Below the pieces are notes generated by a model that did not search any database, was not told the DNA's origin, and was given only the letters and a program-made list of their open reading frames with translations. The position numbers and the translations under genes are program-made. Positions 35,204 through 52,466 of a stretch of DNA of 64,000 bases are shown here, one piece after another. Positions within the stretch are counted from its first letter, which is position 1, and the number at the start of each line of letters is the position of its first letter. Source of the stretch: Phycisphaerae bacterium (lineage in GTDB: Bacteria; Planctomycetota; Phycisphaerae; UBA1845); the NCBI GenBank assembly GCA_029260215.1, contig JAJDDQ010000078.1, positions 1-64,000 of the forward strand. Reading direction: 5' to 3'.

Positions 35204-37933
35204 TTAGCCCCGGTGACCTCTGGCTTGGCTGCTCTTGTTCACGAATTCCGCGTCCAGGACCTTCTCGATGCGCTGCTTCGCTTCATCGAGGTGTGCGAGC
35301 GTGTAAGCGTCCAGCTTGTCGCGCGAAAGGTCGAGCGCGACCTCGATGTCGTCGTGAATGTCCTTGAGCGTCATGCGTACGATCGAGTATGCATCCGCGT
35401 TGAGGCCTCGGCTCGGGCCGGCCAAGTGTATGTTGATCAGCCGGTTGAGGTAGGCACGCTGGAGGTTGCGTCTCGTGCTCGAAATCCTCGGCTTGCGATT
35501 GGTGTACCTGCCGGACGGTGCGCCGTCGAGTTCGGTCCAGATCGCTTTCGTAACCGTGTTGAACAACTCGGGCACGGTCATGGCGTCCTCATCGGCGGGC
35601 ACTTTCAGCTCTCCGTCGTAGATGCGATTGATGACCATCGGGTTGATGAGAATCGTCAACACGCGCGACTGCATGCCGAGGATGCGGTCGTGGACGTCAT
35701 AGGAAACGTCGAAGTTCATCTGATCGCTGTCCCAGTGAATGAATCGTCCGGCGGCCAGCTTGTTCAGCAACTCCGGCGAGAAATCGTAGTATTCGTCGCT
35801 GAAAACCGTGTCAGCCAGAAGACTCAGCGCTTCACGCTGTTTGGCGACCGGCACGATTTCGATGGGCGGCTTGGCGTTGGGATCACCCTTGTGGTGACGG
35901 TGGACGACCTGTCCGCCGACCAGGCGGGCGGCGATACGGGCACTGAAGCCGTATTCGTTGGTGACGATGTTGAACGCGCGGCGCATGCGTGCGTAGCTCT
36001 CACCATCCTTGACAGCCCGATCGGGAAGGTCTTTTAACAACCGGCGCGACAAAGCCATACGGTGCTTGGCGTAGGCGATCGGATCGTCGCCGTTGTCGTA
36101 GCGGTACGTGTAGGGGTCGGGTCCGAACTCGGAAGTATCCTCGTCGGTCCCGTAGGCCAACCCGTCCTCCGCCACGCGCGAGAGAATCGTTTTGAGCATG
36201 TCGCCTTCGGATTTCGCATCACCACCGGACGAGAACTGACTGTAGCCATACGCGATGGCCCAATCGTCGTAGGGGCCTGTAGTCTGGGACACGAAATCGC
36301 TCTGCTCGATCTCAGACTGAGCGTACTCGGCGGGGTTGTAATCCATGATCGATCCGGTGAGCGCACGGGATTCGGAACTGGGCGAGAGCACATCGCTGAG
36401 TTTCTTCCAGGAACTGCCCTTGAAGTTGTGACGAAGCCCGAGCGTGTGCCCGACCTCGTGGGCGACGATTTCCCGGATGACCTGTCCGACGAACTCCTCG
36501 GGCAGATCGCGATTGCCATTCTGCACGGAAAGAAGCTGGTTGAAAGCCATTTGATGTACCATGCCGCGTCCAAGATCGCAGGCGCTGTCCCGCTGATCGA
36601 AAAAGCGTGTGGGCGTGGACACGGTCTCGGTCTCGAACATGTGCGCGCCAGCCGCGTATTCGGGCGTCAGTTGTTCCATCATCGGCGTGAACTTGTATTC
36701 GGGGAATTCGCGGAAGAAGTCGTCACGCATAGGGTCGTCGTGCATGTCGAACGCCGACGAACCCATGAGCGTATTCTCCTGGATGTAGAAGCGGACCATC
36801 GAATCATCGAAGATGATATCCGCATCGAGAATCTGGCCTGTGAACGGGTTCACGCGTGAAGGTCCGCGTGCGAAGGCTCGGCCGCTGACAATCCAGCGGA
36901 AGAAGTTGTAGCGGATATCCTCCGGGTCGAGGTCTTTGAATTCGTTGGTGTCGGTTTGCTGGCGGACTTGAACGGCGCTTAGCAGGCCGACCTTCTCAAA
37001 CGCGTCGTTCCATTCAAGGATGCCTTCGCGCACGTAGCGACGGAACTTCACCGGCACGGTCTTTTCGATGTAAAAGACGATCGGGTTCTCGACGGGTGAT
37101 TCCGTGGCTCTGGGGTCTTGCTTGCGCAGGTTCCACCGATGGATGTAGCGTTTGAAAATGGTCGGATCGTTGTGATCGGTGCTCCAGTCTTTCTGTGCGG
37201 TCATGAAGTAGCCGATGCGATCGTCAGCCTCGCGCGGCTTGTAATCGTTCTTCGGGATTTCAGAGAGGCTGACATACACCGATGCGATCACGCCGTCCGA
37301 TGCAGGCCCCTTGCCCATGTAGGCAGCGTCGACGGAAATCTCCACGTTGTGCGGAAAGGTTTTGATCGTGCTCCAGCGCGAGAGTTTGGCGTCCATGCGC
37401 CGGCTGCCGTACGCGCTGCCCAGACCGACGAAATCCGTCTTGAGCAGGTCGCCGAGGTCGATGACCGGATCACCGCCGGGGGCTTCGGTCTTGATGTCGA
37501 GGGCTTTGACGATGGTGTCGGTGTAGGTTCTGCCGACAACGTCCTCAACGGTGCTGCCCTTGGCATCCTTGTAGCGCGTGTCGGACTCCATGAGGACGAG
37601 CTTCTTGTCGTGACGCTCCCAGTAGAGGGCGCTGCCGCCGAGCATCCAGCCAGCGTAGGTCGGTCCTTTTGAGACCGAGAGGCTGAGCAGGAAAGGCTTC
37701 TTGATTTTCGATTTGGGAATCCTGGCCAGCAGCGTGTCTTTTTCCTTGTCGAAGTAGAGCGTGAAGAACCCTTCCTTGACTTCCATGTCTTTGACGACTT
37801 CGTCGAATTTCGGGAAATCGTCCTTGTCTTTCTTGCCCGCGAGCGCGGACGACGGAGCAAGCATGCCGGCAAGCAGCAGGACCATCGCCGCTCGAGCGAA
37901 ATAGTTGGTCGAGTTTGTCATTGCGTGATTCAT
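35204..37933 (-). CDS. secreted zinc-dependent metalloprotease (zincin HExxH; DUF5117/DUF4953-type), ~909 aa
   Basis: VAHEVGHTLGLRHNF contains the HExxH motif. A signal peptide is present. It is paralogous to the downstream gene. Confidence 0.75.
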   Translation of the reverse strand: MNHAMTNSTNYFARAAMVLLLAGMLAPSSALAGKKDKDDFPKFDEVVKDMEVKEGFFTLYFDKEKDTLLARIPKSKIKKPFLLSLSVSKGPTYAGWMLGGSALYWERHDKKLVLMESDTRYKDAKGSTVEDVVGRTYTDTIVKALDIKTEAPGGDPVIDLGDLLKTDFVGLGSAYGSRRMDAKLSRWSTIKTFPHNVEISVDAAYMGKGPASDGVIASVYVSLSEIPKNDYKPREADDRIGYFMTAQKDWSTDHNDPTIFKRYIHRWNLRKQDPRATESPVENPIVFYIEKTVPVKFRRYVREGILEWNDAFEKVGLLSAVQVRQQTDTNEFKDLDPEDIRYNFFRWIVSGRAFARGPSRVNPFTGQILDADIIFDDSMVRFYIQENTLMGSSAFDMHDDPMRDDFFREFPEYKFTPMMEQLTPEYAAGAHMFETETVSTPTRFFDQRDSACDLGRGMVHQMAFNQLLSVQNGNRDLPEEFVGQVIREIVAHEVGHTLGLRHNFKGSSWKKLSDVLSPSSESRALTGSIMDYNPAEYAQSEIEQSDFVSQTTGPYDDWAIAYGYSQFSSGGDAKSEGDMLKTILSRVAEDGLAYGTDEDTSEFGPDPYTYRYDNGDDPIAYAKHRMALSRRLLKDLPDRAVKDGESYARMRRAFNIVTNEYGFSARIAARLVGGQVVHRHHKGDPNAKPPIEIVPVAKQREALSLLADTVFSDEYYDFSPELLNKLAAGRFIHWDSDQMNFDVSYDVHDRILGMQSRVLTILINPMVINRIYDGELKVPADEDAMTVPELFNTVTKAIWTELDGAPSGRYTNRKPRISSTRRNLQRAYLNRLINIHLAGPSRGLNADAYSIVRMTLKDIHDDIEVALDLSRDKLDAYTLAHLDEAKQRIEKVLDAEFVNKSSQARGHRG

Positions 37934-37972: not shown

Positions 37973-40726
37973 TTAGAGCTTGAAGTCAGCATCGAGGGCT
38001 TTGTCGATTCGGGCCTTTGATTCGTCGAGGTGTGCCCGTGTGAACGCATCCAGCTTGCCGTCGCCGGCTGCCAGGAAATCGCCGATTTGCTGGGACAGTC
38101 CCTTCAGTGTCAGCCGCGTGACCGAGTGGGCGTCCGCTGGCATGGTCCTGCCCGGTTTTTCCAGGAGGATTCCGACGAGCATGTTGAGCTGCGTTCGCTG
38201 CAGCGAGCGGCGAATGCTCGAAATGCAAGGTTTGCGGTTTGAGTAATTGCCGTTGGCAGCGCCGGTCAGCTCAGACCAGATAGCCCGTGTGACCCTGGAC
38301 ATCACCTCGGGGACGGTCATTGCGTCTTCGTCCGCAGGAATCTTTGATTCCGCGTCGTAGATGCGTCCCAGTGTGATCGGGTTCATTAGGTGGAACAGCG
38401 GCCAATACTGTGTGGCGGCGATGCGATCGTGCAGTGGATAGTCGCGTTTGCTGTCGAATTCATCGCTGGCCCAGTGGCGCCAATGGCCCGAGCCCAACCT
38501 GGTGATCAGATCGGGGTCGAAAATGAAGGCTTTGTCGCTGAAAAGGTGTTCTACGAGAAAGTCCAGCGCTTCGCGCTGCTTCTTGACCGGCACGACGACG
38601 GTAGGCGGCTGCTCGTCGGGATCGCCTCGGTGGTTGCGTGTGACGTATTGTCCGCCCACAAATCGCCCGGCGAATCGCGAGACCCTGCCGTACTCGAAGA
38701 GCAGCGCATCGAACGCCCGGCGCAGGCGGCTGTAGGCATCGCCGTCTTCCATCGCCCAGGAATCGATGTCCTTTTGAAGGTGCTGCACCAGTTCGATGCG
38801 GTACTTGGCGTAGGCGATGGGGTCGTCGCCGTTGTCGTAGACGTTGACCAGCGGGTCCGGTGCGAACGTGCCCCGATCCTCGTCGGAGGCGTACGCATGT
38901 CCCGGCTCGGCTGACCGCGATGCGATGGACTTCAGAAGCTCTTTTTCGGTTTTGAACTCGTCGTCCGTATGCCGGTAGCCGTATTCGATCGCCCATTCAT
39001 CGTAGGGTCCGAGACCGACGCCGTAGAAATTCTTCTGGTTGTCTTCACTCGTGTTGAACATGGCTGGGCAGTAGTCCATCACCGAGGCCGACGTGGGTAC
39101 GTTGGCATCGCCGTTGGTTGCGAGGATTTCCTCAAGGGATTTCCACGAACTGGCTTTGAAGTTGTGACGCAGACCCAGGGTATGCCCGACCTCGTGGGAG
39201 ACGAGCCATTTGACGAATTGGCCTGTGTATTTCTCGCTCAGCCCTTGGCCGCCCTCGGCTTTGAGGATCAGGTTTGCAAAGGCCATCTCATGGTTCATGC
39301 CGCTCGCGTAGGTGCAGACAGCCTGGTCCTGGTGGAGCATGCTCTGAACCCACTCGTGATCCCAGGCTGTTTCCGCGCCGCCGTAGTGCGTTGTGTTGGG
39401 GAGCAGTTGCTCCTGTTGCGGTACGAACGCCCATTCAGGGTGAAGGGAAAGAAACTCGCGGGCCTGGGGATCCCAAGCGGCTGTCGGACCCTTGGCGGCC
39501 ATCCGTTCGTACTTGGCGTTGATGGCGCGCAGGAACGAATCGTCGATGACGATGTCGGCGTCGAGGATTTGCCCGGTTTTGGGATTGGTTCGCGACGGGC
39601 CCATTGCGAACGCCCTGCCGCTGACGATCCAGCGGATAAAGTTGTAACGCACGTCTTCGGGATCGAGGTCTTTGAATTCGTTGGTGTCGGTCTGCTGGCG
39701 GACAGCCACCGCGTTCAGCAAACCCGCTTTGGCGAAAGCGTCGTTCCACATGAGCACGCCTTCGCGGATGTAGCGGCGGTACTGGAGCGGAATCGTTTTT
39801 TCGAGGTAGAAGACGATTTGGTCGTCCGGGTGGACGTCTGAGACCTTGGCATCGGGGTCGGCTTTGCGCAGATGCCAGCGATGCACGCGGCGATCGAAGA
39901 CGGTCGTGGCGTTGTGGTCTTTGCTCCAATCCTTGACCGCGCTCATGAAGTACCCGACGCGGTCGTCGGCTTGACGCGGTTTGTAGCCGTTTTTTTCCGG
40001 CAACTCACTGATGCTGTAATGCACGCGGGCCAACACACCGTTTTCGTTGCCGCGCATGAGGGCGGCTTCGACGGTTAGCTCGATGTTCTTCTCGAAGGCT
40101 TTGGTGGTCACCCACTTGCTGAGCGACGCACTCATGCTGGCTGAGTAAAACCGGCTGATGCCGATCCGGTCGCGTTTGAAGACCTTATCCAGATCGATGA
40201 CCGGGTCGCTCCCGCGCTTGCTGACGATCTTGGTCGCGAAAAGAATGCGATCGGTATACGTCCTGGCCACCACATCCTTGACCGTGGATTTGTCCGCCGT
40301 CGCGTAGCCTAGGTCGGGGCTGACCAGGATGAGCTGCTTGTCGCGTTCCTCCCAGCGGACGACGTAGCCTCGCCACATGTACCCGGTCATGGTCGGCCCG
40401 CCGGATATGCTCGTCGAGATCAAAAAGTCCTTGCCGATCATTTTCTTGGGGATGACGCCGAGCAGGTGGTCCTTCTTCTTATCGTAATAGAGATCGAAGA
40501 ATCCGGGAGTCTTTTCGTGCCCCTCGCTGACTTCGTCAAAGGGTGGGAAGTCGGGCTTTTTCTCCTTCTCTTTTTTCTCGTCCTTGGGTTTTTCCGCTGC
40601 CGGTGGGGCATGGGGTTTGGCGGGCGGATCTTCCGCGCGCGTCGCACCGGGCGACAGGGCGATCAAACAGGCACAAACGCCGACCCATCCGATTGACGAA
40701 CCGGGCGACCACAACTTGAGATTCAT
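37973..40726 (-). CDS. secreted zinc-dependent metalloprotease, tandem paralog
   Basis: VSHEVGHTLGLRHNF is present. It is collinear with the upstream paralog, for example WNDAFEKVGLL vs WNDAFAKAGLL and VRQQTDTNEFKDLDPEDIRYNFFRWIVSGRAFA in both. The start is MNLKLWS (40726), preceded by AAGGAG. Confidence 0.75.
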   Translation of the reverse strand: MNLKLWSPGSSIGWVGVCACLIALSPGATRAEDPPAKPHAPPAAEKPKDEKKEKEKKPDFPPFDEVSEGHEKTPGFFDLYYDKKKDHLLGVIPKKMIGKDFLISTSISGGPTMTGYMWRGYVVRWEERDKQLILVSPDLGYATADKSTVKDVVARTYTDRILFATKIVSKRGSDPVIDLDKVFKRDRIGISRFYSASMSASLSKWVTTKAFEKNIELTVEAALMRGNENGVLARVHYSISELPEKNGYKPRQADDRVGYFMSAVKDWSKDHNATTVFDRRVHRWHLRKADPDAKVSDVHPDDQIVFYLEKTIPLQYRRYIREGVLMWNDAFAKAGLLNAVAVRQQTDTNEFKDLDPEDVRYNFIRWIVSGRAFAMGPSRTNPKTGQILDADIVIDDSFLRAINAKYERMAAKGPTAAWDPQAREFLSLHPEWAFVPQQEQLLPNTTHYGGAETAWDHEWVQSMLHQDQAVCTYASGMNHEMAFANLILKAEGGQGLSEKYTGQFVKWLVSHEVGHTLGLRHNFKASSWKSLEEILATNGDANVPTSASVMDYCPAMFNTSEDNQKNFYGVGLGPYDEWAIEYGYRHTDDEFKTEKELLKSIASRSAEPGHAYASDEDRGTFAPDPLVNVYDNGDDPIAYAKYRIELVQHLQKDIDSWAMEDGDAYSRLRRAFDALLFEYGRVSRFAGRFVGGQYVTRNHRGDPDEQPPTVVVPVKKQREALDFLVEHLFSDKAFIFDPDLITRLGSGHWRHWASDEFDSKRDYPLHDRIAATQYWPLFHLMNPITLGRIYDAESKIPADEDAMTVPEVMSRVTRAIWSELTGAANGNYSNRKPCISSIRRSLQRTQLNMLVGILLEKPGRTMPADAHSVTRLTLKGLSQQIGDFLAAGDGKLDAFTRAHLDESKARIDKALDADFKL

Positions 40727-41066
40727 GATTAAGGCTCCTTGCATCCACCGTCACCAAACGTGCCGACGAGTTTGTTTCGAGATTCTGAACGAAACGCTCA
40801 TGCCCTCCGCCCGATTCTCGCAATTTCGAGAGTATAACGGAAGTTGCCGCGAAAAAGCGTGCCGCCAACCGGCGAGTTGACAGCTTATTACATATTGAGT
40901 TTCCTACCCAAACCGGGTATCGACCGGGAGTCGCCCGCAGCATTTGTCGAAGTTGCCGGTGTTTTCGCCGGTTGTGTGGCTGGCTGGGCTGGTGGCGGCC
41001 AGGATCGTGGCGGCGATTCCAGCGTATTCGCACCTGACGCGACGCGCGTCTTTTTTTGTAGGAAAT

Positions 41067-43226
41067 ATGGATCCCAAGCTTATCAACGCCCAGGACCGTT
41101 CGCGCGCGCGGCCGGTACCGCTGCACACTTCCGTCGCGTTTCGGCGGATGATTCGCTCCGTTCTGCCCCATCGCAAGCTGGTTTTCTCCGGAATCGCAGC
41201 CTCCATTGTCTACGCCCTGCTGCACTCTGTGAGCATTTTCGCCGCGCTGCCCGTGCTGCGCGTCATGCTTGACGACGAGGGCCTGCACGGATGGTCGGAC
41301 AGGCAACTGGCTGAGAAGAGGCTGGGGGTCCAACTCGCCTTTCCCGGTGAGAAATCGGGGGAAGACGATGCCATTCTGATCGTTCGGCAAATCGAGCCGA
41401 CCAGCCCGCTAGCAGGTTCCGCGATCCGCGTGGGTGACCTGATCGTGTCGTTGAACGGCGAGCAGCCGGGCGCGAAAGCTTGGCTGAAGCGCGTTGCGTT
41501 CGCGGAAGTCGGCGAGGAGATTCGGTTCAAAACCCGAAGCGCAGAGGGTACGACTGCACAGCCCTACTCCGTCATCGCAGCCGAGTACCCGTTGAAGCTG
41601 CGTGTGGCGCGCGATGTGCTGTCCTTCATCCCTCGTGACCCGAGCGGTTCCAATCGGCTGACCGTGTTGAAATATGTGCTGGTTTGGCTGGTCCTCGTCG
41701 TGATGTCAGCCAACGCATGCCGATTCGCCGGTGAATACTGGGTGCGGCTGGGTGTGTTGCGCGGGGTGATGGACCTGCGGCGGCAGCTTTACAAGAAGGT
41801 GCTTCGCCTGCCGATGTCGCGTTTCTCGCGCGATACCGGGGATATGGTCACGCGATTTGTGCAGGATATTCAGGAGATACAACGCGGGCTGATGTCGCTG
41901 TTCGGCAAGACGATTCGCGAACCGTTCAAAGCCGGATTCATCCTGCTCTGGGCGCTGGCGCTCGATTGGCGTCTTACGCTGGCGATGTTTGTGATCGCGC
42001 CGGGTGCGGTGCTCGTGTTCTGGAAAACCGGATCTTCCGTCAAAAAAGCCAATAAAAAGCTGCTACGCGGCTACGGGGCGATGATCAGTGCGTTGTCCGG
42101 CACGCTGGCCTCGATCAATATCGTCAAAGCCTATACCGGTGAAGCGGCGGAGCGGCGACGGCTGTGGCAGGTGGACCGGTCGATGTTCCGCCAGCAGAAA
42201 AAGATCATTCGGCTGGAGGCTATGCTGAGTCCGCTGATCGAGGTGGTCGCGATCGTGCTGGTCGCGGGCGGGGCGGTTTGGCTGGGCAAGCGCGTCATCG
42301 GTGGGGAAATCGATCTGTCCGTTTTCGGGACGCTGGTGGTGGCGCTCGGAATGCTTTTCGATCCGCTGCGCAAGCTGGCTGATGTGTACACGCGGGTTAT
42401 GCGCAGCGGAGCCGGTGCTGAACGCCTGTTCGAGCTGCTCGACGCGCCGGAGGAAACCGAACCCGACAAAACCGGGCAAAAGCTGGAATCCTTCACCGAT
42501 TCGATCGAATTTCGCGGGGTGACTTTTACCTATCCCGAATCCGATCATCCCGCGTTGTGTGAAATCGACCTGAAAGTCTGTTGCGGTGAGACGATCGCGC
42601 TGGTCGGGCGGAACGGGTCCGGAAAATCGACCCTGATGGGTCTCCTGACGCGGTTTTACGATCCGAGCGACGGCCAAATCCTCCTCGACGGCGTCGATCT
42701 GCGTTCCTACGCACTCCGCAGCCTCAGGCGAAACATCGGGCTGGTGACGCAGGATGCCGTCGTGTTTCCGATCCCGCTGGCCGACAACATCGCTTACGGA
42801 ACGCGCAATGTGAGTCGCGAGCGGGTCATGGACGCTGCCCGGCGCGCTTTCGCCGACGAGTTCATCCGCCAGACCCCTCAGGGTTACGACACGGTTCCGG
42901 GCGAGATGGGCAGGACGCTCTCCGGCGGCCAGCGGCAACGCATTTCCATCGCCCGGGCCATCCTGCGCGATCCGCCGATCCTCATCTTCGACGAAGCCAC
43001 AAGCCAGGTGGATTCGGAATCAGAGCAACGCATTCAGGCCGCCTTGAAGGATTTCGCCCAGGAGCGCACCACGTTCATCGTAGCCCATCGTCTGAGCACC
43101 ATTCGCTTCGCCGACCGAATCGTCGTGCTCGACGAAGGGCGTATCATCGACAACGGCACGCACGAGGAGTTGTCCGAGCGATGCTCGTTCTATCGAGGCC
43201 TGTGCGAAACGCAGTTGCAGGCGTGA
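41067..43226 (+). CDS. ABC exporter (fused TMD-NBD, MsbA-like) with an N-terminal TM + PDZ domain extension
   Basis: The PDZ-like segment is AILIVRQIEPTSPLAGSAIRVGDLIVSLNGEQP. It is followed by six TM helices of the ABC_membrane type and then Walker A GRNGSGKST, signature LSGGQRQR and Walker B ILIFDEATS. Confidence 0.8.
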   Translation: MDPKLINAQDRSRARPVPLHTSVAFRRMIRSVLPHRKLVFSGIAASIVYALLHSVSIFAALPVLRVMLDDEGLHGWSDRQLAEKRLGVQLAFPGEKSGEDDAILIVRQIEPTSPLAGSAIRVGDLIVSLNGEQPGAKAWLKRVAFAEVGEEIRFKTRSAEGTTAQPYSVIAAEYPLKLRVARDVLSFIPRDPSGSNRLTVLKYVLVWLVLVVMSANACRFAGEYWVRLGVLRGVMDLRRQLYKKVLRLPMSRFSRDTGDMVTRFVQDIQEIQRGLMSLFGKTIREPFKAGFILLWALALDWRLTLAMFVIAPGAVLVFWKTGSSVKKANKKLLRGYGAMISALSGTLASINIVKAYTGEAAERRRLWQVDRSMFRQQKKIIRLEAMLSPLIEVVAIVLVAGGAVWLGKRVIGGEIDLSVFGTLVVALGMLFDPLRKLADVYTRVMRSGAGAERLFELLDAPEETEPDKTGQKLESFTDSIEFRGVTFTYPESDHPALCEIDLKVCCGETIALVGRNGSGKSTLMGLLTRFYDPSDGQILLDGVDLRSYALRSLRRNIGLVTQDAVVFPIPLADNIAYGTRNVSRERVMDAARRAFADEFIRQTPQGYDTVPGEMGRTLSGGQRQRISIARAILRDPPILIFDEATSQVDSESEQRIQAALKDFAQERTTFIVAHRLSTIRFADRIVVLDEGRIIDNGTHEELSERCSFYRGLCETQLQA

Positions 43227-44598: not shown

Positions 44599-46968
44599 TT
44601 GATCCAGAGGGGAATGGAAGCCATGCACACACGACACGCGGTGGTGATCGTCTATCTGGTCTTTGCGGGCTTGCCGGCGGCGGGCGGCGAGCCTTTGATC
44701 GGTGGGGGCAAGCACGTCGAATCTCCGTCGTCGTGCCTTTCGCTGACAGACCGGGCGGGCATCGAAAGCAAACTTGCGGCGCTCCCTTCTGTCGGCCAAT
44801 CGTCAGATTCCGGCGAGGCGTCTCCGCCGCTCCTGCGTTTCTTCCCGTTGGCGGGGCGCATGTGGGGTGATCTTTACTTGTTCAACTACGTCGATCTCGA
44901 TCCGTCGGTCGAGTTCAGCGATTGGAATTGCACGAGCCGGACGTACGACGGACATCAGGGAAGCGACACGGACATTCGCAGTTTCGGGGAGCAACTGATC
45001 GGTGTGCCGGTCTACTCCGCCCAAGACGGTGTGGTCGTCGATACGCACGACGGCGAACCGGACATGAACACAGTTTGGGACAACCAGCCGGCGAACTACG
45101 TCATTATCGATCACGGGTTTGGGCGTTTGGGGTGGTATTTCCATTTCAAGAAAGACAGTGTGGCGGTTGTGGTTGGGCAGCGTGTTCGCGCGGGGCAGCA
45201 GATTGGGCTGTGCGGGTCGAGTGGAATCAGCACGGGGCCTCATCTTCATTTTGAACTGCGCGAGAACGGTGCGGTCCACGAACCATTCACCGGCCCCTGC
45301 CACGACGAGGTCAGCAGTTGGGAAGTGCAGCCCGAGGCCAGCGAACAGTCCTATGTGCATGATTTCGGATTTTCTTACCAGATCATTTCGGCTGACTGGC
45401 CTGCGGTTTGGCCCCGGACGGGTCAGGTCGGGTTGTTGGATCCGGTGATACGCGTTTGGTGGTACGGCACGGAGTTGCCGGTTGGCAGCGGCTGGCGTGT
45501 GCAGTTTTTTCGTCCGGATGGTTCGATGGCCTTCGATGGCAGTGAACAGTTCTTCGGGAATTCGATACCGTGGCGGTGGTACAGTTGGTGGTGGACGTAC
45601 AACGTCGCGGATATGCACACGATCATGGGCACGTGGCGGATGAAGTTGATCGTCAACGATATCGAGCTGGTCGACGCGCCGATCGAGGTGCGTGAGATGC
45701 GTACGGCGGATTTCAACCGCGCCCCAGCGGCGATTACGGCTGACCTTGTTCCGCAGCCGGCGTTTCCGGGTGACGCTTTGATCTGCCGGGTGGATTCTGA
45801 TCTCGTGCTGGATGATCTTGACTACGATATCGTGCGTTATGAATACGTCTGGACTGTTGACGACGAGGAAGTGAGGTGGGTGACGACGGCGGCTCACTCG
45901 GATACGTTGCCGCACCACATTGCTCATTATGGTGAAAGCGTTGCGTGTGCGGTGACGCCGGGCGACGGGCGTGATGTCGGTCCGATGTCGGTTGCGAGTG
46001 TGATGATTCAGTGCCCGCAGCGTTTTGACTTTTCGTGCGACGGTGATGTCGATCTTGTGGACTACGATTCTTTTTTTGAATGCTGGTCGGGGCCTGGGGT
46101 GCCGGCGGCTGGGATGTGCGGTCAGGCTGATTCCGATGGTGATCTCGATGTCGATCTTGCGGACTATGGGGTGTTCGTGCAGGTTTATTCGGGCGACTGC
46201 GGTGCGCGGATCACTGGTGATCCTGTGGACGAGACCGTTTGTCCGGGTGAATCGGTCGTGCTCAGTGTCGGTGTGGAAGGTGGGGAGTTGGCCTACGAGT
46301 GGATGCGTGACGGCGTGCCGATTTCAGGCGAAACGGCAGACACGTTGACCATCGATTCTGTGACGAAGCAAGACGCCGGTGCGTACGAGGTTCGTGTGAC
46401 GGGCGCGTGCGGTGTGGATTATTCGAGCGCGGCGCGCGTGAGTTTGATCGCTCCGCCGATTGTTTCCACGCAACCGTCGAGCCAATCGACGTGCATCGGC
46501 GACAGTGCGATCATGAGCATTCAGGCCAACGATGCGGGTACGCTAAGTTATCAGTGGCGGCGGAATGGGGAAGATATTGCGGGTGCGGATGAACCGGACT
46601 ATGAGGTGCCGTTTGTGGCGCAAGACGATCTGGGACAGTATTCCTGTGTGGTTTCGGACGGATGCGGTCAGCAAAATTCGTCAATGGAGGCCACATTGAC
46701 TGAGTGGCCTGAACCTTTGATTTCGGTCCAACCTTTCGGTACGACGATTTGTGAAGGCGAGTCGATCTTTCTGTTCATCAGCGCTCAGAACGTTACATCG
46801 TATCAATGGTACAAGAACGGAGAGGTTCTTCAGAACGGCGGCAGCGCATTCCTGAGCGTTTCGAATGCGTCGGTTGTGGATTCGGGCGGTTACCACGTCG
46901 TGGCGAGCAGCCCATGTGACTCCACTCAGTCCAAGGTTGCTCCGGTTCAGGTGGTCTTTTGCAGATAA
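44599..46968 (+). CDS. secreted M23 family metallopeptidase (LytM/lysostaphin-like) with dockerin-like and C-terminal Ig-like repeat domains
   Basis: M23 motifs GHQGSDTD and GSSGISTGPHLHFE are present. Acidic repeats are CDGDVDLVDYDSFFECW and DSDGDLDVDLADYGVF. About four ~90-aa Ig-like repeats (…AYEWMRDGVPISGETADTLTIDSVTKQDAGAYEVRVTGACG…) follow. Confidence 0.75.
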   Translation: MIQRGMEAMHTRHAVVIVYLVFAGLPAAGGEPLIGGGKHVESPSSCLSLTDRAGIESKLAALPSVGQSSDSGEASPPLLRFFPLAGRMWGDLYLFNYVDLDPSVEFSDWNCTSRTYDGHQGSDTDIRSFGEQLIGVPVYSAQDGVVVDTHDGEPDMNTVWDNQPANYVIIDHGFGRLGWYFHFKKDSVAVVVGQRVRAGQQIGLCGSSGISTGPHLHFELRENGAVHEPFTGPCHDEVSSWEVQPEASEQSYVHDFGFSYQIISADWPAVWPRTGQVGLLDPVIRVWWYGTELPVGSGWRVQFFRPDGSMAFDGSEQFFGNSIPWRWYSWWWTYNVADMHTIMGTWRMKLIVNDIELVDAPIEVREMRTADFNRAPAAITADLVPQPAFPGDALICRVDSDLVLDDLDYDIVRYEYVWTVDDEEVRWVTTAAHSDTLPHHIAHYGESVACAVTPGDGRDVGPMSVASVMIQCPQRFDFSCDGDVDLVDYDSFFECWSGPGVPAAGMCGQADSDGDLDVDLADYGVFVQVYSGDCGARITGDPVDETVCPGESVVLSVGVEGGELAYEWMRDGVPISGETADTLTIDSVTKQDAGAYEVRVTGACGVDYSSAARVSLIAPPIVSTQPSSQSTCIGDSAIMSIQANDAGTLSYQWRRNGEDIAGADEPDYEVPFVAQDDLGQYSCVVSDGCGQQNSSMEATLTEWPEPLISVQPFGTTICEGESIFLFISAQNVTSYQWYKNGEVLQNGGSAFLSVSNASVVDSGGYHVVASSPCDSTQSKVAPVQVVFCR

Positions 46969-47763: not shown

Positions 47764-48720
47764 TTACGGTAACGGGCTGCGCTGCGATGCTTCCCGAGCA
47801 AGCAAGGCTGCGCCCACCAATCCCGAATAATCGCCGAGCGCGTTCAACTCGACGCGAACATTTTCAGGTTTCAGTGAACTGGGCACCTGCTCGTACAGAC
47901 GTGAGGCTGTGTGAACGATTGAGGGGATTCCTCTCGCGACGCCGCCGCCAATAATGATCGTGTCCGGTGCGTACACGTGCGTGATTTGCACAAGAGCGGC
48001 ACACAGCGGGCGGGCCAACTGTTGAATCAATCGTGCCGCGCTTGTGTCACCATTCTGGAAGCGAACTTCGATTTCGCCAAGATCGTCACCAATTTCCATC
48101 GCGGCGGCGGCATGGCGGATTGCGGGGGCTGCCACCAGCGACTCAAGGGTTCCGCGGACGCCGGTGTTGCAAAGCGGTGCGTCGTCGGCTGTGTCACAGA
48201 TCAGATGCCCGAGGTGCCCGGCGCTGTGGTGCGTGTGGCGAAGCGGTTGCCCGTCGAGGATGACGGCTCCGCCGACGCCCGTGCCGAGGGTTAGATAGAC
48301 GAAACGTTTCGGTCTTTTTTCGTAGGCACAGAATTCCCCCCAAGCGCCGGCGACCGAATCGCAATCCAGGATCGTGATCAAACCAGTCCGTTCGACCAGC
48401 CGATCGCGCAACGGCAGGCCGACCAGAAACGGCAGATTGACCGCGTGAATGATGGCTGACCGCCCGGGTTCGAGTACGCCGGGCAGTCCGACACCCATCG
48501 CCTCCGGCGCGGGGAATGAATCGGTCTGCTGACGGCAAAAACGATAGGCATCCTCAAGCCATTGAACGATATCCTCACCATCGTTGCCGATGGGGGTCTC
48601 TCCGCAAAGGTCCGCCATTACCCGGCCGAACGCATCGACGATGGCCAACCGCGTAAACGTACCGCCGATGTCCACGCCAACGTAGTTTTTGGTTTCGTCC
48701 GTCTCGTGTTTGTGTCCCAT
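47764..48720 (-). CDS. ROK family sugar kinase (glucokinase/GlcNAc-MurNAc kinase-like)
   Basis: VGVDIGGTFTRLAIVD is the ROK N-terminal ATPase motif. CxCGxxGC-like Zn motif is also present (HHSAGHLGHLICD). Confidence 0.8.
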   Translation of the reverse strand: MGHKHETDETKNYVGVDIGGTFTRLAIVDAFGRVMADLCGETPIGNDGEDIVQWLEDAYRFCRQQTDSFPAPEAMGVGLPGVLEPGRSAIIHAVNLPFLVGLPLRDRLVERTGLITILDCDSVAGAWGEFCAYEKRPKRFVYLTLGTGVGGAVILDGQPLRHTHHSAGHLGHLICDTADDAPLCNTGVRGTLESLVAAPAIRHAAAAMEIGDDLGEIEVRFQNGDTSAARLIQQLARPLCAALVQITHVYAPDTIIIGGGVARGIPSIVHTASRLYEQVPSSLKPENVRVELNALGDYSGLVGAALLAREASQRSPLP

Positions 48721-48796
48721 CTGAATACCTCGCCGCACAGTTTGGCGTTTGCTTTCGACGGGTGCAACCTTGCTGTGATTGGATTAGCCTGCTTGA

Positions 48797-50269
48797 ATGG
48801 CCGCGATTGATGCTTTGGTGTTGGGAACGTATTTCGTCGGGATTCTCGCGGTCGGGTTTTGGGCCGGTCGCGGTGAGCGCGACAGCGAGGATTTCTTCCT
48901 CGGCGGGCGGAATCAGCATTGGCTTGTCGTTGGGCTGTCGATTCTCGCGACCGAGTTGTCGGCCATCACGTTTATCGTCGTGCCGGGCACCGCTTATCAC
49001 GGGGATTGGTCCTACCTGCAATTGTACGTCGGTGCCTTCATCGGGAAGCTCGTCATCGTGCAGCTGCTGCTCCCTGCGTTCTATGGCGCGCGGGTGACGA
49101 CGGTGTACGAATTTCTGGGTCAGCGATTCGGGCCTTGGACACGGACGACGGCTTCACTGCTTTTCTTCGCTTCACGCATCGTGGGAAGCGCCTTGCGTCT
49201 GTTGGCCGCCGCGATCGCGATCAGCATTGTGTTCGATTGGCCTCTGGTGACGGTGATCGTTGGTTGTGCGGTGGTGGCGATGGCGTACGCGACGTTTGGG
49301 GGGATCAAGGCCATCGTGTGGACGGACGCGCTGCAGGCAGTCGTTTTCCTTGTGAGCGCGACGGCAGCTTTGGTCTATCTGTTCGTTACGACGCCTGGGT
49401 CGGTTGTCGAGAATCTTCAATTCGCCCACGACGCTGGCAAGCTGCGCGTGTTCGACTGGAGTTTGAACCTCAACGACGAAAGCGCGTTCGTCGTTCTGTT
49501 CGTTCATACGTTGTTCCTCAACGCGGCTGTGTTCGGCACGGATCAGGACATGACACAGCGCATGCTCACCTGTCGCGATATCAAACAAGGGCAGCGCTCG
49601 CTGATGTTCAACATGTTCATCGGGCTTCCGGTGGTCTGCCTGTTCCTGCTCGTCGGCGTCATGCTGTGGGTACACGATGCAGCCAACGGCACCGCGAGCG
49701 TTACGGAAGCCATGAACGCGAACGTGGTGTTCCCGCACTTCATCGCCAACGGTCTGCCAGCCGGCGTGGGATTGCGTGGGCTGTTACTGTCCGGCCTGTT
49801 TGCGGCTGCGATGTCGAGCCTTGATTCCGCTTTGGGTGCGTTGTCTTCGAGCGCGGTGGTTGATTTCTATCGCCCTTACTTTGCGCCGAAACGTTCGGAA
49901 CGACATTATCTTCGCGTCGCCCGATTGTTTACAGTCGCGTTCGGTTTGATCCTGGTTGCCGTCGCGATCGGTTTCATCGGTTCGAATAATCTTCTGTGGG
50001 CGGTGTTCGAGTGGGCGGGGTTGTTTTTTGGTGCCTTGCTCGGCGTGTTTCTGCTTGGCGTCACCACGCGAACCCGTGGCAGCGACCGGTTCAACGTGTT
50101 GGCGATGCTCAGTGCGATCGCCATCGTGGGCGCGCTCAAGCTGTGGCAGGATCCGAACGCGCCGATCGTAGCTTGGCCTTGGTGGATTGTGATTGGGACG
50201 GTGTGGACGTTCGCGGTCGGCGGACTATTTCGGTCGGGGGATATTGTCGGGGATGCAGCCGGTGTTTGA
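48797..50269 (+). CDS. sodium:solute symporter family (SSS) transporter
   Basis: About 13 TM helices with an SSF signature region (…GGRNQHWLVVGLSILATELSAITFIVVPG…). Confidence 0.85.
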   Translation: MAAIDALVLGTYFVGILAVGFWAGRGERDSEDFFLGGRNQHWLVVGLSILATELSAITFIVVPGTAYHGDWSYLQLYVGAFIGKLVIVQLLLPAFYGARVTTVYEFLGQRFGPWTRTTASLLFFASRIVGSALRLLAAAIAISIVFDWPLVTVIVGCAVVAMAYATFGGIKAIVWTDALQAVVFLVSATAALVYLFVTTPGSVVENLQFAHDAGKLRVFDWSLNLNDESAFVVLFVHTLFLNAAVFGTDQDMTQRMLTCRDIKQGQRSLMFNMFIGLPVVCLFLLVGVMLWVHDAANGTASVTEAMNANVVFPHFIANGLPAGVGLRGLLLSGLFAAAMSSLDSALGALSSSAVVDFYRPYFAPKRSERHYLRVARLFTVAFGLILVAVAIGFIGSNNLLWAVFEWAGLFFGALLGVFLLGVTTRTRGSDRFNVLAMLSAIAIVGALKLWQDPNAPIVAWPWWIVIGTVWTFAVGGLFRSGDIVGDAAGV

Positions 50270-51133
50270 GGCGAGTCGCGCTTCGGCTCCGGGGTGATCG
50301 AGGTTGGCGAAGTGCATGACGATCGCGGTCTTGACGCGACCGCCGGCGCGTTTGAGCAAGTCCACGGCATCCGTACGCGACAGGTCGGTGACCTCGCATA
50401 GAATACGCTCAGCCCGGTCGGTGAGCTTGGCGGCTGCACCGGTGTTCAGGTCGGTCATCAGGTTTCCGAAGACCTTGCCGATGGAAATCATGCTCAGCGT
50501 TGTGATCATGTTGAGGGCGAGTTTGGTGGCGGTTCCGGCTTTGAGGCGCGTGCTTCCGGTGATGATCTCCGGACCCGTCAGAATGCGAATGGACACGTCG
50601 GCGGTGTCGGGGGCTTGCTCAAACGGTACGCAGGCGAGAAAGACGGTCTTGGCACCGTCGCGTTTGGCTTGTGCGAGGGCACCGTGGACGAATGGTGTCG
50701 TTCCGCCCGACGCGATGCCGAGTACGACGTCGTTGAAATCGACCGTTTTGTCTGCAATGGCGAACGCTCCGTCGTCGGCTGAATCTTCCGCGCCTTCCGC
50801 GCTGCGACGCATTGCGTCCCATCCGCCGGCGATAATTCCCTGCACCATGTGCGGATCCGAGAGAAACGTCGGCGGGCACTCGGACGCATCGAGTACGCCA
50901 AGTCGCCCGCTTGTCCCCGCGCCGACGTAGATCAACCTTCCGCCTGCGCGAAACGACTCCGTCACCAAGTCGACCGTTTTGCAAATCGCGTTCCTGGCAC
51001 GCGCGACTGCCGCCGGCACGCTCGCGTCTTCGGTCGCCATGACATCGAACGCATCAGCCACCGACAGCGTGTCGATAAGTCGCGAGCGTTCGTTGCGTTG
51101 TTCGGTGAGAAGGTGTCCCCGGTCTTCATTCAC
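50225..51133 (-). CDS. murQ: N-acetylmuramic acid 6-phosphate etherase
   Basis: SIS domain LIYVGAGTSGRLGVLDASECPPTF with the catalytic Glu context, about 300 aa. Confidence 0.85.
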   Translation of the reverse strand: MNEDRGHLLTEQRNERSRLIDTLSVADAFDVMATEDASVPAAVARARNAICKTVDLVTESFRAGGRLIYVGAGTSGRLGVLDASECPPTFLSDPHMVQGIIAGGWDAMRRSAEGAEDSADDGAFAIADKTVDFNDVVLGIASGGTTPFVHGALAQAKRDGAKTVFLACVPFEQAPDTADVSIRILTGPEIITGSTRLKAGTATKLALNMITTLSMISIGKVFGNLMTDLNTGAAAKLTDRAERILCEVTDLSRTDAVDLLKRAGGRVKTAIVMHFANLDHPGAEARLASNTGCIPDNIPRPK

Positions 51134-52466
51134 GTTCGATACTCGATAGCTGCGTCAGTTCGATATCGTCGAAGTAGTGTCGCAGGATCTGTTCGTATTG
51201 GAAACCGTTGATGGCCATTCCAAGGGCACCGATCTGACACATGCCCGCGCCATGTCCCCAGCCCCCACCGCGAAACGTGAAGCGGGTCGGTTCGCCGGCG
51301 TTGTCTCGTGCAATATCAACCACGAACGCGCTGCTGTACAGAAACGAATCGCACAAAGCGTTGCGGATGTTGTACTGGTCTTCAATAATCGTGGCTACTT
51401 GGCGACCGTCTCTGTTGATGTAAACGATTTTCACTTCCACGGCTCGCCCACTGAACCCCCGTCGCGTCACGACGAGATCGTACACGCTTTGAAGGTCGAT
51501 GCCGTCGTCGCCGAACGTTGCGAAGTGTTTGCGACGGAGAATATCCGCGAATTCGTCGGGGCCGTAACTCACCTCCCAGCGGAATCGCCCGCAACCGTCG
51601 TCCACTCTGCCCAGGAATTTCGGCAGGTCGCCATCCGGCACAACGGAAGGGCTGCAGAACGCATCGCTTCCCTGCTGAAGATATTCCTCCATGTTCGCAT
51701 CCGCAATCGGGTACAACCCATGCAATGCTGTGCCCGGCGGTGCGTCGACCACGCTGCGTTGGCCGGGTTTGCGATTCGACCACACGTGTTCCGGCGATTC
51801 ACTCACACCGCCGCAGCTCTTGGAATAGTTCGCGTCGACAATCACGCGTCGCCGTGCGATTTCAGGGTCGGGCGCCGTCATAACGATACCGGCTGTCTTC
51901 TCGACTGCGCGACGTGCTGCATTGGTGATCGCCCCCAAACCTTGGAACCGCTGACAACAATCATCGTTGCAAAGATCGATGCCAAGATTGGCGTGTTTGC
52001 GCTCACTCGCAACCGCCGTCCAGGATCGGGCCACGACGCATTGTGCTTTGAGGAACTCGATCGGCGCATCGCCGCTCATCTCGGCTGTGATGACTCCTTG
52101 CAGGTACTGTTCAAGCGGAAGTTCGTTGACGATGAACAAATACCCGTTGTGACTCGTGATTTCAATCAACCCTGACAGGGCTGTGTCGATATGCCTGGAC
52201 CAGTGAAAACCGCGACCGGCTGGGCAATCATGGACGACGGTCTTCTGTGCAGCGTCCCGCGATACGATTCGGACGATGGGTTGCCCATCGGTGTGGACGC
52301 GACCGTCGTCTGCGTATCCGGCAACGCAATCGCCATGTGCGCGATAGGTGATACGATCTCCGTCTGATGTCCCGCCCGCCGGTGCAAGCGTCAGGTCCAC
52401 CGACGTAATCTTGTCTTGCGGAAGGATGATTCCGATCTTGATGTCGACGTCTGAATTCGTACTCAT
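51126..52466 (-). CDS. SpoIID/LytB domain protein (cell-wall amidase enhancer / lytic transglycosylase-like)
   Basis: LEQYLQGVITAEMSGDAPIEFLKAQCVVARSWT matches the SpoIID core (EEYL.GVV..EM…EALKAQAVAART). It overlaps the murQ start by 8 nt. Confidence 0.7.
   Translation of the reverse strand: MSTNSDVDIKIGIILPQDKITSVDLTLAPAGGTSDGDRITYRAHGDCVAGYADDGRVHTDGQPIVRIVSRDAAQKTVVHDCPAGRGFHWSRHIDTALSGLIEITSHNGYLFIVNELPLEQYLQGVITAEMSGDAPIEFLKAQCVVARSWTAVASERKHANLGIDLCNDDCCQRFQGLGAITNAARRAVEKTAGIVMTAPDPEIARRRVIVDANYSKSCGGVSESPEHVWSNRKPGQRSVVDAPPGTALHGLYPIADANMEEYLQQGSDAFCSPSVVPDGDLPKFLGRVDDGCGRFRWEVSYGPDEFADILRRKHFATFGDDGIDLQSVYDLVVTRRGFSGRAVEVKIVYINRDGRQVATIIEDQYNIRNALCDSFLYSSAFVVDIARDNAGEPTRFTFRGGGWGHGAGMCQIGALGMAINGFQYEQILRHYFDDIELTQLSSIERE

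Follow-up and report, generated by a model that had tools for sequence, protein, structure and literature searches.

The window, by which we mean the whole analysed stretch of 64,000 nucleotides from a Phycisphaerae bacterium, carries on its plus strand a complete gene for an ABC half-transporter, divergently transcribed from two genes for met-zincin metalloproteases. The features of the locus, with the evidence used to place each of them, are:

35204..37933, minus strand: distal paralogous met-zincin, 909 aa (P0185); Pfam
37973..40744, minus strand: proximal met-zincin, DUF5118/DUF5117/DUF4953, 923 aa, with HEVGH; Pfam
40745..41066, no strand: divergent intergenic region, 322 bp, from the proximal met-zincin gene to the ABC gene; gene coordinates
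41067..43226, plus strand: complete PDZ-ABC ORF, a TMD-NBD half-transporter of 719 aa; ATG 41067, stop 43224-43226
41163..41270, plus strand: TM1 (residues 33-68) of the six-helix exporter domain; hydropathy, model helix 33-68, alignment to E. coli MsbA TM1
41271..41651, plus strand: inserted module (residues 69-195), predicted periplasmic; in all of the best 120 homologues, models
41319..41582, plus strand: PDZ domain proper (residues ~85-172); profile against PDB, Pfam per family member, Foldseek
41652..42440, plus strand: TM2-TM6 (residues 196-458) of the type IV exporter domain; Pfam, model helices, Foldseek with MsbA on top
42501..43223, plus strand: nucleotide-binding domain (residues 479-719); Pfam ABC_tran (E=2.6e-32), motif scan

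ATG 41067 is the likely start of the PDZ-ABC gene, in agreement with the consensus of its homologues, which opens MDPxLI... The database protein P0001 begins upstream, at TTG 40944 (760 aa). A reading of this DNA from its letters alone (the sequence-only reading) had placed the ABC gene downstream of two tandem metalloproteases; the protease genes lie on the minus strand, so the arrangement is divergent. The annotated neighbours of the ABC gene in the window are the met-zincins, an M23 peptidase and PntAB, with no LPS genes among them. Searches found no solved or named relatives of the DUF4953 met-zincin, and none of the upstream lipoprotein F2, which has no homologue in the window either.

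The 719-aa protein is a real, intact type IV (ABCB-like) ABC exporter half-transporter. Pfam recognised ABC_membrane at residues 199-434 (E=1.5e-30) as well as ABC_tran, and the nucleotide-binding motifs are intact: Walker A (G514RNGSGKS), Q-loop (V560TQ), signature (L618SGGQ), Walker B (I638LIFDE) and H-loop (A673HR). The full-length model has six long helices and matched MsbA, P-gp and TmrAB in Foldseek (E~1e-31).

In the sequence-only reading the PDZ-like segment was N-terminal and followed a leading transmembrane region. That leading region is TM1 of the six-helix domain, and the segment is an insertion into the TM1-TM2 loop. When aligned with the E. coli protein, it comes right after the MsbA 'LLDDGFG' motif, in place of the short GKTDRSV loop. 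The full-length model orders the elements as TM1 (33-68), a helix (72-86), the PDZ strands (88-170), a second helix (176-185) and TM2 (196-247). The inserted module thus comprises a juxtamembrane helix (E71-G-L-H-G-W76..R79..A82..R85), the PDZ domain, the return helix 176-185 and a conserved proline, P189. Pfam ABC_membrane and the MsbA family model begin to match only at residue ~196-199 (profile positions 39 and 49), and profile positions 1-48 are missing from the TIGR02203 match, as the insert separates TM1 from the rest. The N-terminal 36 residues contain 8 K/R against 2 D/E. By homology with the topology of MsbA, the TM1-TM2 loop is assigned to the periplasm, and the full-length monomer model likewise puts the PDZ domain there. 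The PDZ domain would therefore lie on the exit side, where it cannot select cytoplasmic cargo, and a dimer would carry two periplasmic PDZ domains above its TM1/TM2 wings.

Taken alone, the window protein stays below the Pfam thresholds for a PDZ domain, with 19 bits for PDZ_2 (cut-off 27) and 18.6 bits for PDZ (cut-off 23.2), or overall 19-22 against 23-27. These sub-threshold scores are what could be said for an artefact, be it a stretch that resembles a PDZ domain by chance, a chimera made in assembly, or an insertion that is decaying and has no function. Against this, an alignment of 38 insert sequences matched the PDZ domains of DegP, DegQ, DegS and RseP in the PDB with E-values down to 4e-11 (DegP PDZ1), and PDZ-containing chains accounted for 60 of 60 among the matches listed. 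The Pfam model PDZ_6 was matched individually by 18 of the 38 family members (best 4e-9). The AlphaFold model of the insert reached a pLDDT of 88 and a pTM of 0.81, and with it Foldseek retrieved the PDZ domains of CtpB, DegQ, MucD, Deg1 and HtrA/HtrA3 with probability 1.0, superposing at rmsd 2-5 Å over ~90-110 columns. Moreover, the insert is kept in frame in 120 sequence clusters and in 31 species genomes from many independent assemblies. The conservation data refute the artefact reading, to which we assign next to no probability. On profile and model evidence the insert has a PDZ fold of the HtrA/Ctp type at residues ~85-172, and the claim that ORF 41067-43226 encodes an ABC exporter with a PDZ domain is upheld; the peptide quoted for it, ILIVRQIEPTSPLAGSAIRVGDLIVSLNGEQP, corresponds to residues 103-134. 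The fold is carried by the 38-sequence profile, AlphaFold and Foldseek, whereas the single-sequence call would not have been safe.

The PDZ stretch includes a putative carboxylate-binding loop, R85-L86-G87-V88, and a helix at 136-144. The loop directly precedes the first strand and adjoins the stretch that the profile aligned to DegP PDZ1; among the best 120 members its arginine is kept in 95% and its leucine in 77%, the glycine in only 61%. The closest relatives in sequence and fold are the PDZ domains of DegP, DegQ, DegS, RseP, CtpB and Tsp, which are periplasmic and bind hydrophobic C-termini. In these envelope proteases and sensors the PDZ domain regulates or feeds a protease of the same polypeptide, whereas here its host is an ABC exporter without a protease domain.

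The insert is a conserved, previously undescribed design of MsbA-like exporters in Phycisphaerae. It is present in all of the best 120 homologues (each a sequence cluster; 47-66% identity, ~700-730 aa), two members having a shortened form of 102 aa. This makes at least 120 clusters with the architecture, essentially all of them from Phycisphaerae/Planctomycetota MAGs. A stringent pattern, a hand-made degenerate DNA form of the motif after TM1, matched 31 GTDB species genomes, of which 30 are labelled Phycisphaerae/Planctomycetota; column frequencies suggest that it catches about half of the family, so that a genome without a match is uninformative. A search with the insert profile through 1.84 billion representatives returned 20,344 matches at E<=1e-3, dominated by multi-PDZ proteins with summed domain scores, and gives no usable family count; its top 150 contain ~11 single-stretch matches at position ~65-200. 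The rarity supposed by the sequence-only reading is consistent with what was found elsewhere: Foldseek with the full-length model retrieved no solved exporter with such an insert, and in solved type IV exporters such as MsbA the first periplasmic loop is short. ABC transporters go unmentioned in the main text of a survey that covers 7,852 microbial PDZ proteins (PMC6411480), and a literature search for PDZ together with MsbA or ABC exporter, from whose reach most subscription journals were excluded, did not find the architecture.

MsbA is the closest characterised relative throughout. It is the best-matching of the solved half-transporters by sequence (E~1e-101), MsbA from four species heads the Foldseek matches of the full-length model, and TIGR02203 (MsbA) is the top NCBIfam family at 464 bits (463.9), with the runner-up family at 399 bits; the TMD-NBD half-transporter seen by the sequence-only reading is confirmed by Pfam and motifs, and its MsbA type agrees with the top-scoring family. 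The lipid A-core flippase of Gram-negatives (E. coli P60752; PDB 3B5W, 5TV4, 6BPL) and the window protein have in common a six-helix type IV TMD with an NBD, an LLDDGFG-like motif after TM1 and basic residues at two interior positions. One of these, E. coli R148, which from MsbA-LPS structures we take to be an LPS-binding residue, corresponds to R284 (110/120). R78 and K299 are interior LPS-binding residues of E. coli MsbA (PMC10945598); K299 aligns with R435 (120/120), and R78 falls on A215 in gapless register, with a near-invariant arginine, R219, one helical turn away. At the exterior LPS site R238 is likewise not kept in register, its place being taken by F374 (F in 99/120), R188 is replaced by S or K or kept as R, and K243 is K/R in 106/120. 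The two proteins differ further in the first periplasmic loop, of ~10 residues in MsbA and here a helix-PDZ-helix module of ~127, and in that the PDZ-ABC protein scores under the curated equivalog cut-off of TIGR02203 (602 bits). The protein is MsbA-like in sequence and fold, and at most a candidate member of MsbA proper.

Some relatives have genes of LPS-core type in their neighbourhood, which the window lacks next to its ABC gene. In nine GTDB loci and in L034 and L035 a GT4 glycosyltransferase gene on the same strand ends 6-45 bp before the PDZ-ABC gene; it is in turn preceded by a Kdo/WaaP-family kinase in L015, L017, L021 and L035, and one record contains a GT4-ABC read-through fusion. 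A second upstream ABC gene in L015, L021 and L030 was considered as a heterodimer partner and rejected, since in L035 an ABC-F protein (ABC_tran_Xtn) occupies that position and the motif is absent from the upstream ORFs. Planctomycetes have LptD and BamA (PMC3422733).

The sequence-only reading had suggested that the PDZ domain recognises a substrate or peptide tail for export. An exporter of peptides or proteins, of a type I secretion or bacteriocin-like kind, with the PDZ domain reading the tail of its cargo, would fit the general property of PDZ domains to bind peptide C-termini and the secreted proteases encoded next door. The domain lies on the periplasmic (trans) side of the membrane, however, and the scores for HlyB (311 bits), PrtD (209 bits) and a bacteriocin exporter (239 bits) are far under the 464 bits for MsbA. 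In addition, the protein has no C39/CLD domain, no gene for an HlyD-type membrane-fusion protein was found among the annotated window neighbours or in L032-L035, and both met-zincins have hydrophobic, signal-peptide-like N-termini of their own. Recognition of a cargo tail is therefore not supported, and we regard a peptide exporter as very improbable.

Instead, we propose that the product of the gene is a homodimeric MsbA-like half-transporter (type IV, ABCB-type) in its Phycisphaerae version, with the ~127-residue periplasmic PDZ module as a docking site on the exit side; we consider this explanation probable. The PDZ domain would dock the C-terminus or a β-strand of a periplasmic or envelope protein and so couple the flippase, physically or by regulation, to an envelope process further downstream. 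The juxtamembrane helix (EGLHGW.DR..A..R), with its highly conserved basic and aromatic residues, would lie on the periplasmic face of the membrane, at the point where the flipped head-group comes out.

This last element could also be read without any protein ligand. The insert might handle the lipid or glycan substrate itself, its helix and PDZ surface receiving or releasing the flipped head-group or gating the periplasmic side. PglK, the Campylobacter flippase of lipid-linked oligosaccharides (NCBIfam NF050066), is reported by Perez et al. (2015) to have a functional short external helix in its periplasmic TM1-TM2 loop, and would then be another type IV flippase with an extra element in the loop that the insert occupies. 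Conservation within the insert also peaks not in the PDZ core but in the flanking helices, namely at E71, G72, H74, G75, W76, R79, A82 and R85 of the juxtamembrane helix (76-99%), and at P189. Nevertheless, the element of PglK is a short helix and not a folded domain, and the sequence similarity to it is much weaker (188 bits). Contact with a head-group would hardly need a whole PDZ domain, yet the fold is kept across the family at high model confidence, is of the peptide-binding HtrA/Ctp type and has an R-φ-G-φ loop in the window protein. We judge substrate handling by the insert to be an unlikely account of it.

If the PDZ domain docks a protein, the adjacent met-zincin is the most concrete candidate. 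The proximal met-zincin ends in ...ALDADFKL-COOH (terminal stretch ...KARIDKALDADFKL). The domain could be specific for C-terminal tails of this kind (...A-[ED]-[FY]-x-L-COOH), borne by the exported DUF4953 met-zincin that is co-encoded with it, and binding would tether or regulate the protease at the exporter or let it report the exporter's state. Several comparisons are consistent with this. A met-zincin gene divergently adjoins the PDZ-ABC gene in 11 of 31 GTDB loci, and the unit persists at 49-50% ABC identity among unrelated flanking genes (L032, L033, L039). The pairing belongs to a different subclade from the GT4 linkage, with the gene of the window among its members. Of 61 met-zincin matches, 19 are on contigs equal in length to that of a PDZ-ABC match, which suggests a shared contig; several of these contigs are only 6-15 kb long. 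An exact [FY]-x-L end, the ligand pattern of class II/HtrA-type PDZ domains, is found in 53 of the 60 closest met-zincin orthologues, while paralogues mask it by C-terminal extensions, as in the distal copy of the window, where the ALDAEF helix is followed by VNKSSQARGHRG.

The controls point the other way. Tail conservation is ordinary, the last 6 aa ranking 677 of 912 windows and no better than the protein overall, and the idea of an exceptionally conserved signal was rejected on this ranking. The conserved tail positions (-7, -6, -4, -2, 0) are spaced as expected for the hydrophobic side of an amphipathic helix, and for met-zincins with the type-A tail on long contigs, no ABC gene lies within 6 kb in three of the four checked. 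Finally, the PDZ domain and its loop are kept equally in the GT4-linked subclade; a differential loss of the PDZ groove where no protease is adjacent was looked for by comparison, and rejected as none was seen. The tie to the neighbouring metalloproteases that the sequence-only reading had floated thus gains from the divergent pairing and the tails and stays speculative in view of the controls, with the proximal met-zincin as a candidate partner. Specific binding of its tail appears doubtful to us. We have similar reservations about the wider form of the idea, in which the PDZ domains of the flippase dimer would form a docking station that physically ties the export of lipid or LPS to one particular envelope protein, most concretely the DUF4953 met-zincin through [FY]-x-L-COOH, or would provide a comparable connection to the step that follows in LPS transport.

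Large folded periplasmic domains for the hand-over to partners or of substrates are established in the ABC transporters MacB, LolCDE, FtsEX and LptFG. They have type VI/VII folds and Sabre/Porter or β-jellyroll domains, in contrast to the type IV fold and the PDZ domain of the present exporter. To our knowledge it is still unsettled how lipid cargo passes from type IV exporters to the machine that comes next. That a whole class has a protein-interaction domain built into an MsbA-like flippase, on its exit side, suggests that a coupling, be it physical or regulatory, takes place there. The PDZ domain is usable as bait and thus offers a natural handle for finding the partner.

Looking forward, the finding widens the host range of bacterial PDZ domains beyond proteases. 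Should the met-zincin indeed dock at the exporter, the result would be a transporter-tethered periplasmic protease, which we know of for no ABC exporter. Such a partnership would also be a first hint at what the uncharacterised DUF4953/DUF5117 protease family does.

The PDZ-ABC gene runs uninterrupted from ATG 41067 to a stop codon at 43224-43226 on the plus strand and encodes 719 amino acids, of which residues 103-134 are the peptide quoted in the sequence-only reading. The database copy (P0001) is 760 amino acids long and starts at TTG 40944, 41 codons 5' of this ATG. Because the consensus N-terminus of 60 homologues (MDPxLI...) is the same as translation from ATG 41067, the deposited protein probably extends too far 5' and ATG 41067 is probably the true start. 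Pfam placed ABC_membrane at residues 199-434 (E=1.5e-30) and ABC_tran at residues 499-646 (E=2.6e-32), and a motif scan found the ATPase motifs canonical and intact.

When the window protein was searched alone, its Pfam PDZ matches were sub-threshold, one scoring 19 bits (cut-off 27) and the other 18.6 bits (cut-off 23.2). An alignment of the insert region from 38 diverse family members was used as a profile against the PDB, where it matched PDZ domains of DegP, DegQ, DegS, RseP, AlgW, GRASP and the D1 protease (best E=4e-11); among the matches listed, 60 of 60 PDB chains contain a PDZ domain. Scanned singly, 18 of the 38 members matched PDZ_6 (best 4e-9), 16 PDZ_2 and 11 PDZ. The AlphaFold2 model of residues 66-200 was confident (pLDDT 88, pTM 0.81), and Foldseek gave a probability of 1.0 to each of its pairings with PDZ domains of CtpB, DegQ, MucD, Deg1, HtrA3 and DegS. 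The sequence-only reading had staked its PDZ segment on profile support; since this was found, and was joined by single-member matches, model and fold comparison, the claim stands and the insert has a PDZ fold.

The same reading had called the domain N-terminal. The ABC_membrane and MsbA models match no earlier than residue ~196-199, entering at profile positions 39 and 49; helix 1 of the canonical domain therefore lies elsewhere. Hydropathy indicates a helix at ~37-66, and the full-length model (pLDDT 84, pTM 0.74) gives the following order:

Residues 33-68: TM1
Residues 72-86: juxtamembrane helix
Residues 88-170: PDZ strands
Residues 176-185: return helix
Residues 196-247: TM2, followed by four more long helices

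The PDZ domain thus sits between TM1 and TM2 rather than at the N-terminus. In the alignment, E. coli MsbA (sequence checked and identical to PDB 3B5W) has a short GKTDRSV loop where the PDZ-ABC protein carries its insert, directly C-terminal to the LLDDGFG motif of MsbA (MLDDEGLHGW in the window protein). The TM1-TM2 loop of MsbA is periplasmic, and the first 36 residues of the window protein hold 8 K/R against 2 D/E. Taken together, the late profile start, hydropathy, modelled helices, MsbA alignment and N-terminal charge show that the PDZ domain is an insertion in the first periplasmic loop, facing the periplasm.

The best 120 database clusters are 47-66% identical to the query over 92-100% of its length (most 100%) and mostly ~700-730 amino acids long; those with names come from Phycisphaerae, Phycisphaerales or Planctomycetota MAGs. 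All 120 keep the insert, with gap fractions of at most 0.07 in core PDZ columns, and insert length ranges from 102 to 169 amino acids among them; that the architecture is an artefact can be virtually dismissed. Conservation of the insert peaks not in the PDZ core but in the juxtamembrane helix (E71 97%, G72 99%, H74 76%, G75 92%, W76 97%, R79 91%, A82 93% and R85 95% in the best 120) and at P189 ahead of TM2 (96%). An insert devoted to substrate handling or gating, acting without a protein ligand, is a credible though unlikely reading. A stringent degenerate DNA pattern of the juxtamembrane motif matched 31 GTDB species genomes, 30 labelled Phycisphaerae/Planctomycetota and one Alphaproteobacteria. 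The matching contig of the latter MAG (L014; JANQQE010000032.1, 252 kb) contains a Phycisphaerae-type met-zincin/PDZ-ABC unit and is probably mis-binned.

Foldseek of the full-length model against solved structures found the insert in no solved exporter, as MsbA targets have ~575 residues yet alignments span ~700 columns. No description of a PDZ domain in a type IV exporter was found in the searchable full-text literature, and ABC transporters are unmentioned in the main text of a survey of 7,852 microbial PDZ proteins (PMC6411480). The components are ordinary; it is their combination, a PDZ domain in the first periplasmic loop, that is unusual and is absent from both sources.

NCBIfam ranked MsbA first (TIGR02203, 464 bits), followed by MsbA_rel (399), PRK11176 MsbA (386), HepA (351) and a glucan exporter (343), with HlyB (311), bacteriocin (239) and PrtD (209) models well below MsbA. 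The top score falls short of the curated cut-off (602 bits), in part because the insert splits off TM1. MsbA is also the closest solved half-transporter by sequence (E~1e-101) and by fold (Foldseek). R148 of E. coli MsbA, an LPS-contact residue, corresponds to R284, kept in 110 of 120 relatives. Of the LPS-contact residues K299 and R78 (PMC10945598), K299 has the invariant R435 as its counterpart; R78 aligns with A215, and R219, which is near-invariant, follows after one helical turn. Exterior-site R238 aligns with F374. On family scores, the sub-cut-off score, fold, contact residues and ATPase motifs, we class the protein as MsbA-like rather than as a proven MsbA. A peptide exporter whose PDZ domain recognises the cargo tail, as the sequence-only reading had envisaged, is contradicted by the periplasmic topology and by the family scores, and we consider it very improbable.

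Two gene arrangements recur around the PDZ-ABC gene. In type II it lies 6-45 bp 3' of a GT4 glycosyltransferase gene on the same strand (nine GTDB loci plus L034 and L035), and that GT4 gene is preceded in L015, L017, L021 and L035 by a Kdo/WaaP-family LPS kinase gene. This LPS-core-like neighbourhood supports a glycolipid flippase role. A single partial homologue record (P0117, MFQ5591615.1) joins the C-terminal half of GT4 through a ~70-residue linker to TM1 of PDZ-ABC, and reflects either a genuine GT4-ABC fusion or a MAG sequence from which the stop codon was lost. A 'second ABC' upstream in some loci was rejected as an exporter partner; it is an ABC-F protein.

In type I (11 of 31 loci) the PDZ-ABC gene is divergently paired with a met-zincin gene (DUF5118/DUF5117/DUF4953) on the other strand, often with a lipoprotein of the F2 family between them on the ABC strand (F2 in 10 of 31 loci). 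The arrangement also surrounds ABC genes 49-50% identical to that of the window with unrelated flanks (L032, L033, L039). The window shows the type I arrangement minus F2, no homologue of which was found within it.

35204-37933 and 37973-40744, minus strand: tandem DUF5118/DUF5117/DUF4953 met-zincins, ~910-920 amino acids each
44599-46968, plus strand: M23 peptidase/immunoglobulin-like protein
47764-52466: cluster of ROK-family kinase, sodium:solute symporter, SIS/GKRP (MurQ-like etherase) and SpoIID-domain protein
L032 9392-9973 and L033 9316-9909: F2 lipoprotein, directly 5' of the PDZ-ABC gene
L005, L006, L011, L016, L018-L020, L023-L025: further loci with F2 lipoprotein

Both met-zincin genes of the window are transcribed from the minus strand, so the ABC gene diverges from them; the first reading had placed it downstream. 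F2 proteins (~195 amino acids) have a lipobox Cys and a conserved FP..D.SVN.F...GDYD.FR.LW...EP...RGW pattern, with no Pfam or PDB match. The M23 protein (789 amino acids), two genes 3' of the ABC gene, carries several immunoglobulin-like domains after its peptidase domain; the 47764-52466 cluster suggests amino-sugar or peptidoglycan recycling.

HtrA/Ctp-type PDZ domains bind hydrophobic-x-hydrophobic C-termini. The met-zincin adjoining the PDZ-ABC gene ends in ...ALDADFKL, and 53 of its 60 closest orthologues have an exact [FY]-x-L-COOH stop; in paralogues, including the distal copy of the window (...DAEFVNKSSQARGHRG), the same helix is buried under extensions. The proteases have signal-like hydrophobic N-termini, and 19 of 61 met-zincin matches lie on a contig equal in length to that of a PDZ-ABC match and so apparently share it. 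The PDZ domain might specifically dock this tail. However, conservation of the tail does not exceed that of the remaining protein (last six residues rank 677 of 912 windows; whole-protein mean 0.66), and the residues that are conserved in it (-7 A, -6 L, -4 A, -2 F/Y, 0 L) would line up along a single side of an amphipathic helix. Moreover, of four tailed met-zincins examined on long contigs, three belong to a tandem protease pair that lacks an ABC gene within 6 kb, and the PDZ domain and its R-phi-G-phi loop are kept equally in the type II subclade. We therefore regard specific tail docking as improbable.

Of the two paired met-zincins, the one transcribed first has the [FY]-x-L-COOH terminus and the second has the same helix plus a variable extension. 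The ordered pair recurs in L036-L038 with no ABC gene nearby and is thus a conserved unit in itself. A search for solved or named relatives of the met-zincin found none. In a third met-zincin subgroup (P0210, P0215-P0217, P0221-P0232, P0235, P0238, P0239) a glycine- and phenylalanine-rich stretch is followed by a different conserved C-terminus, ...[VIA]LPxR-COOH, which might serve as a signal for sorting or processing.

We favour, with some confidence, an MsbA-like flippase that works as a homodimer on a lipid-linked envelope glycolipid and displays two PDZ domains in the periplasm; family similarity and the type II context point to this substrate class. On the exit side the PDZ domain would dock a protein of the periplasm, and the conserved basic/aromatic helix would lie at that part of the membrane surface where the head-group comes out. 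The PDZ-insert exporter characterises a whole class-level lineage.
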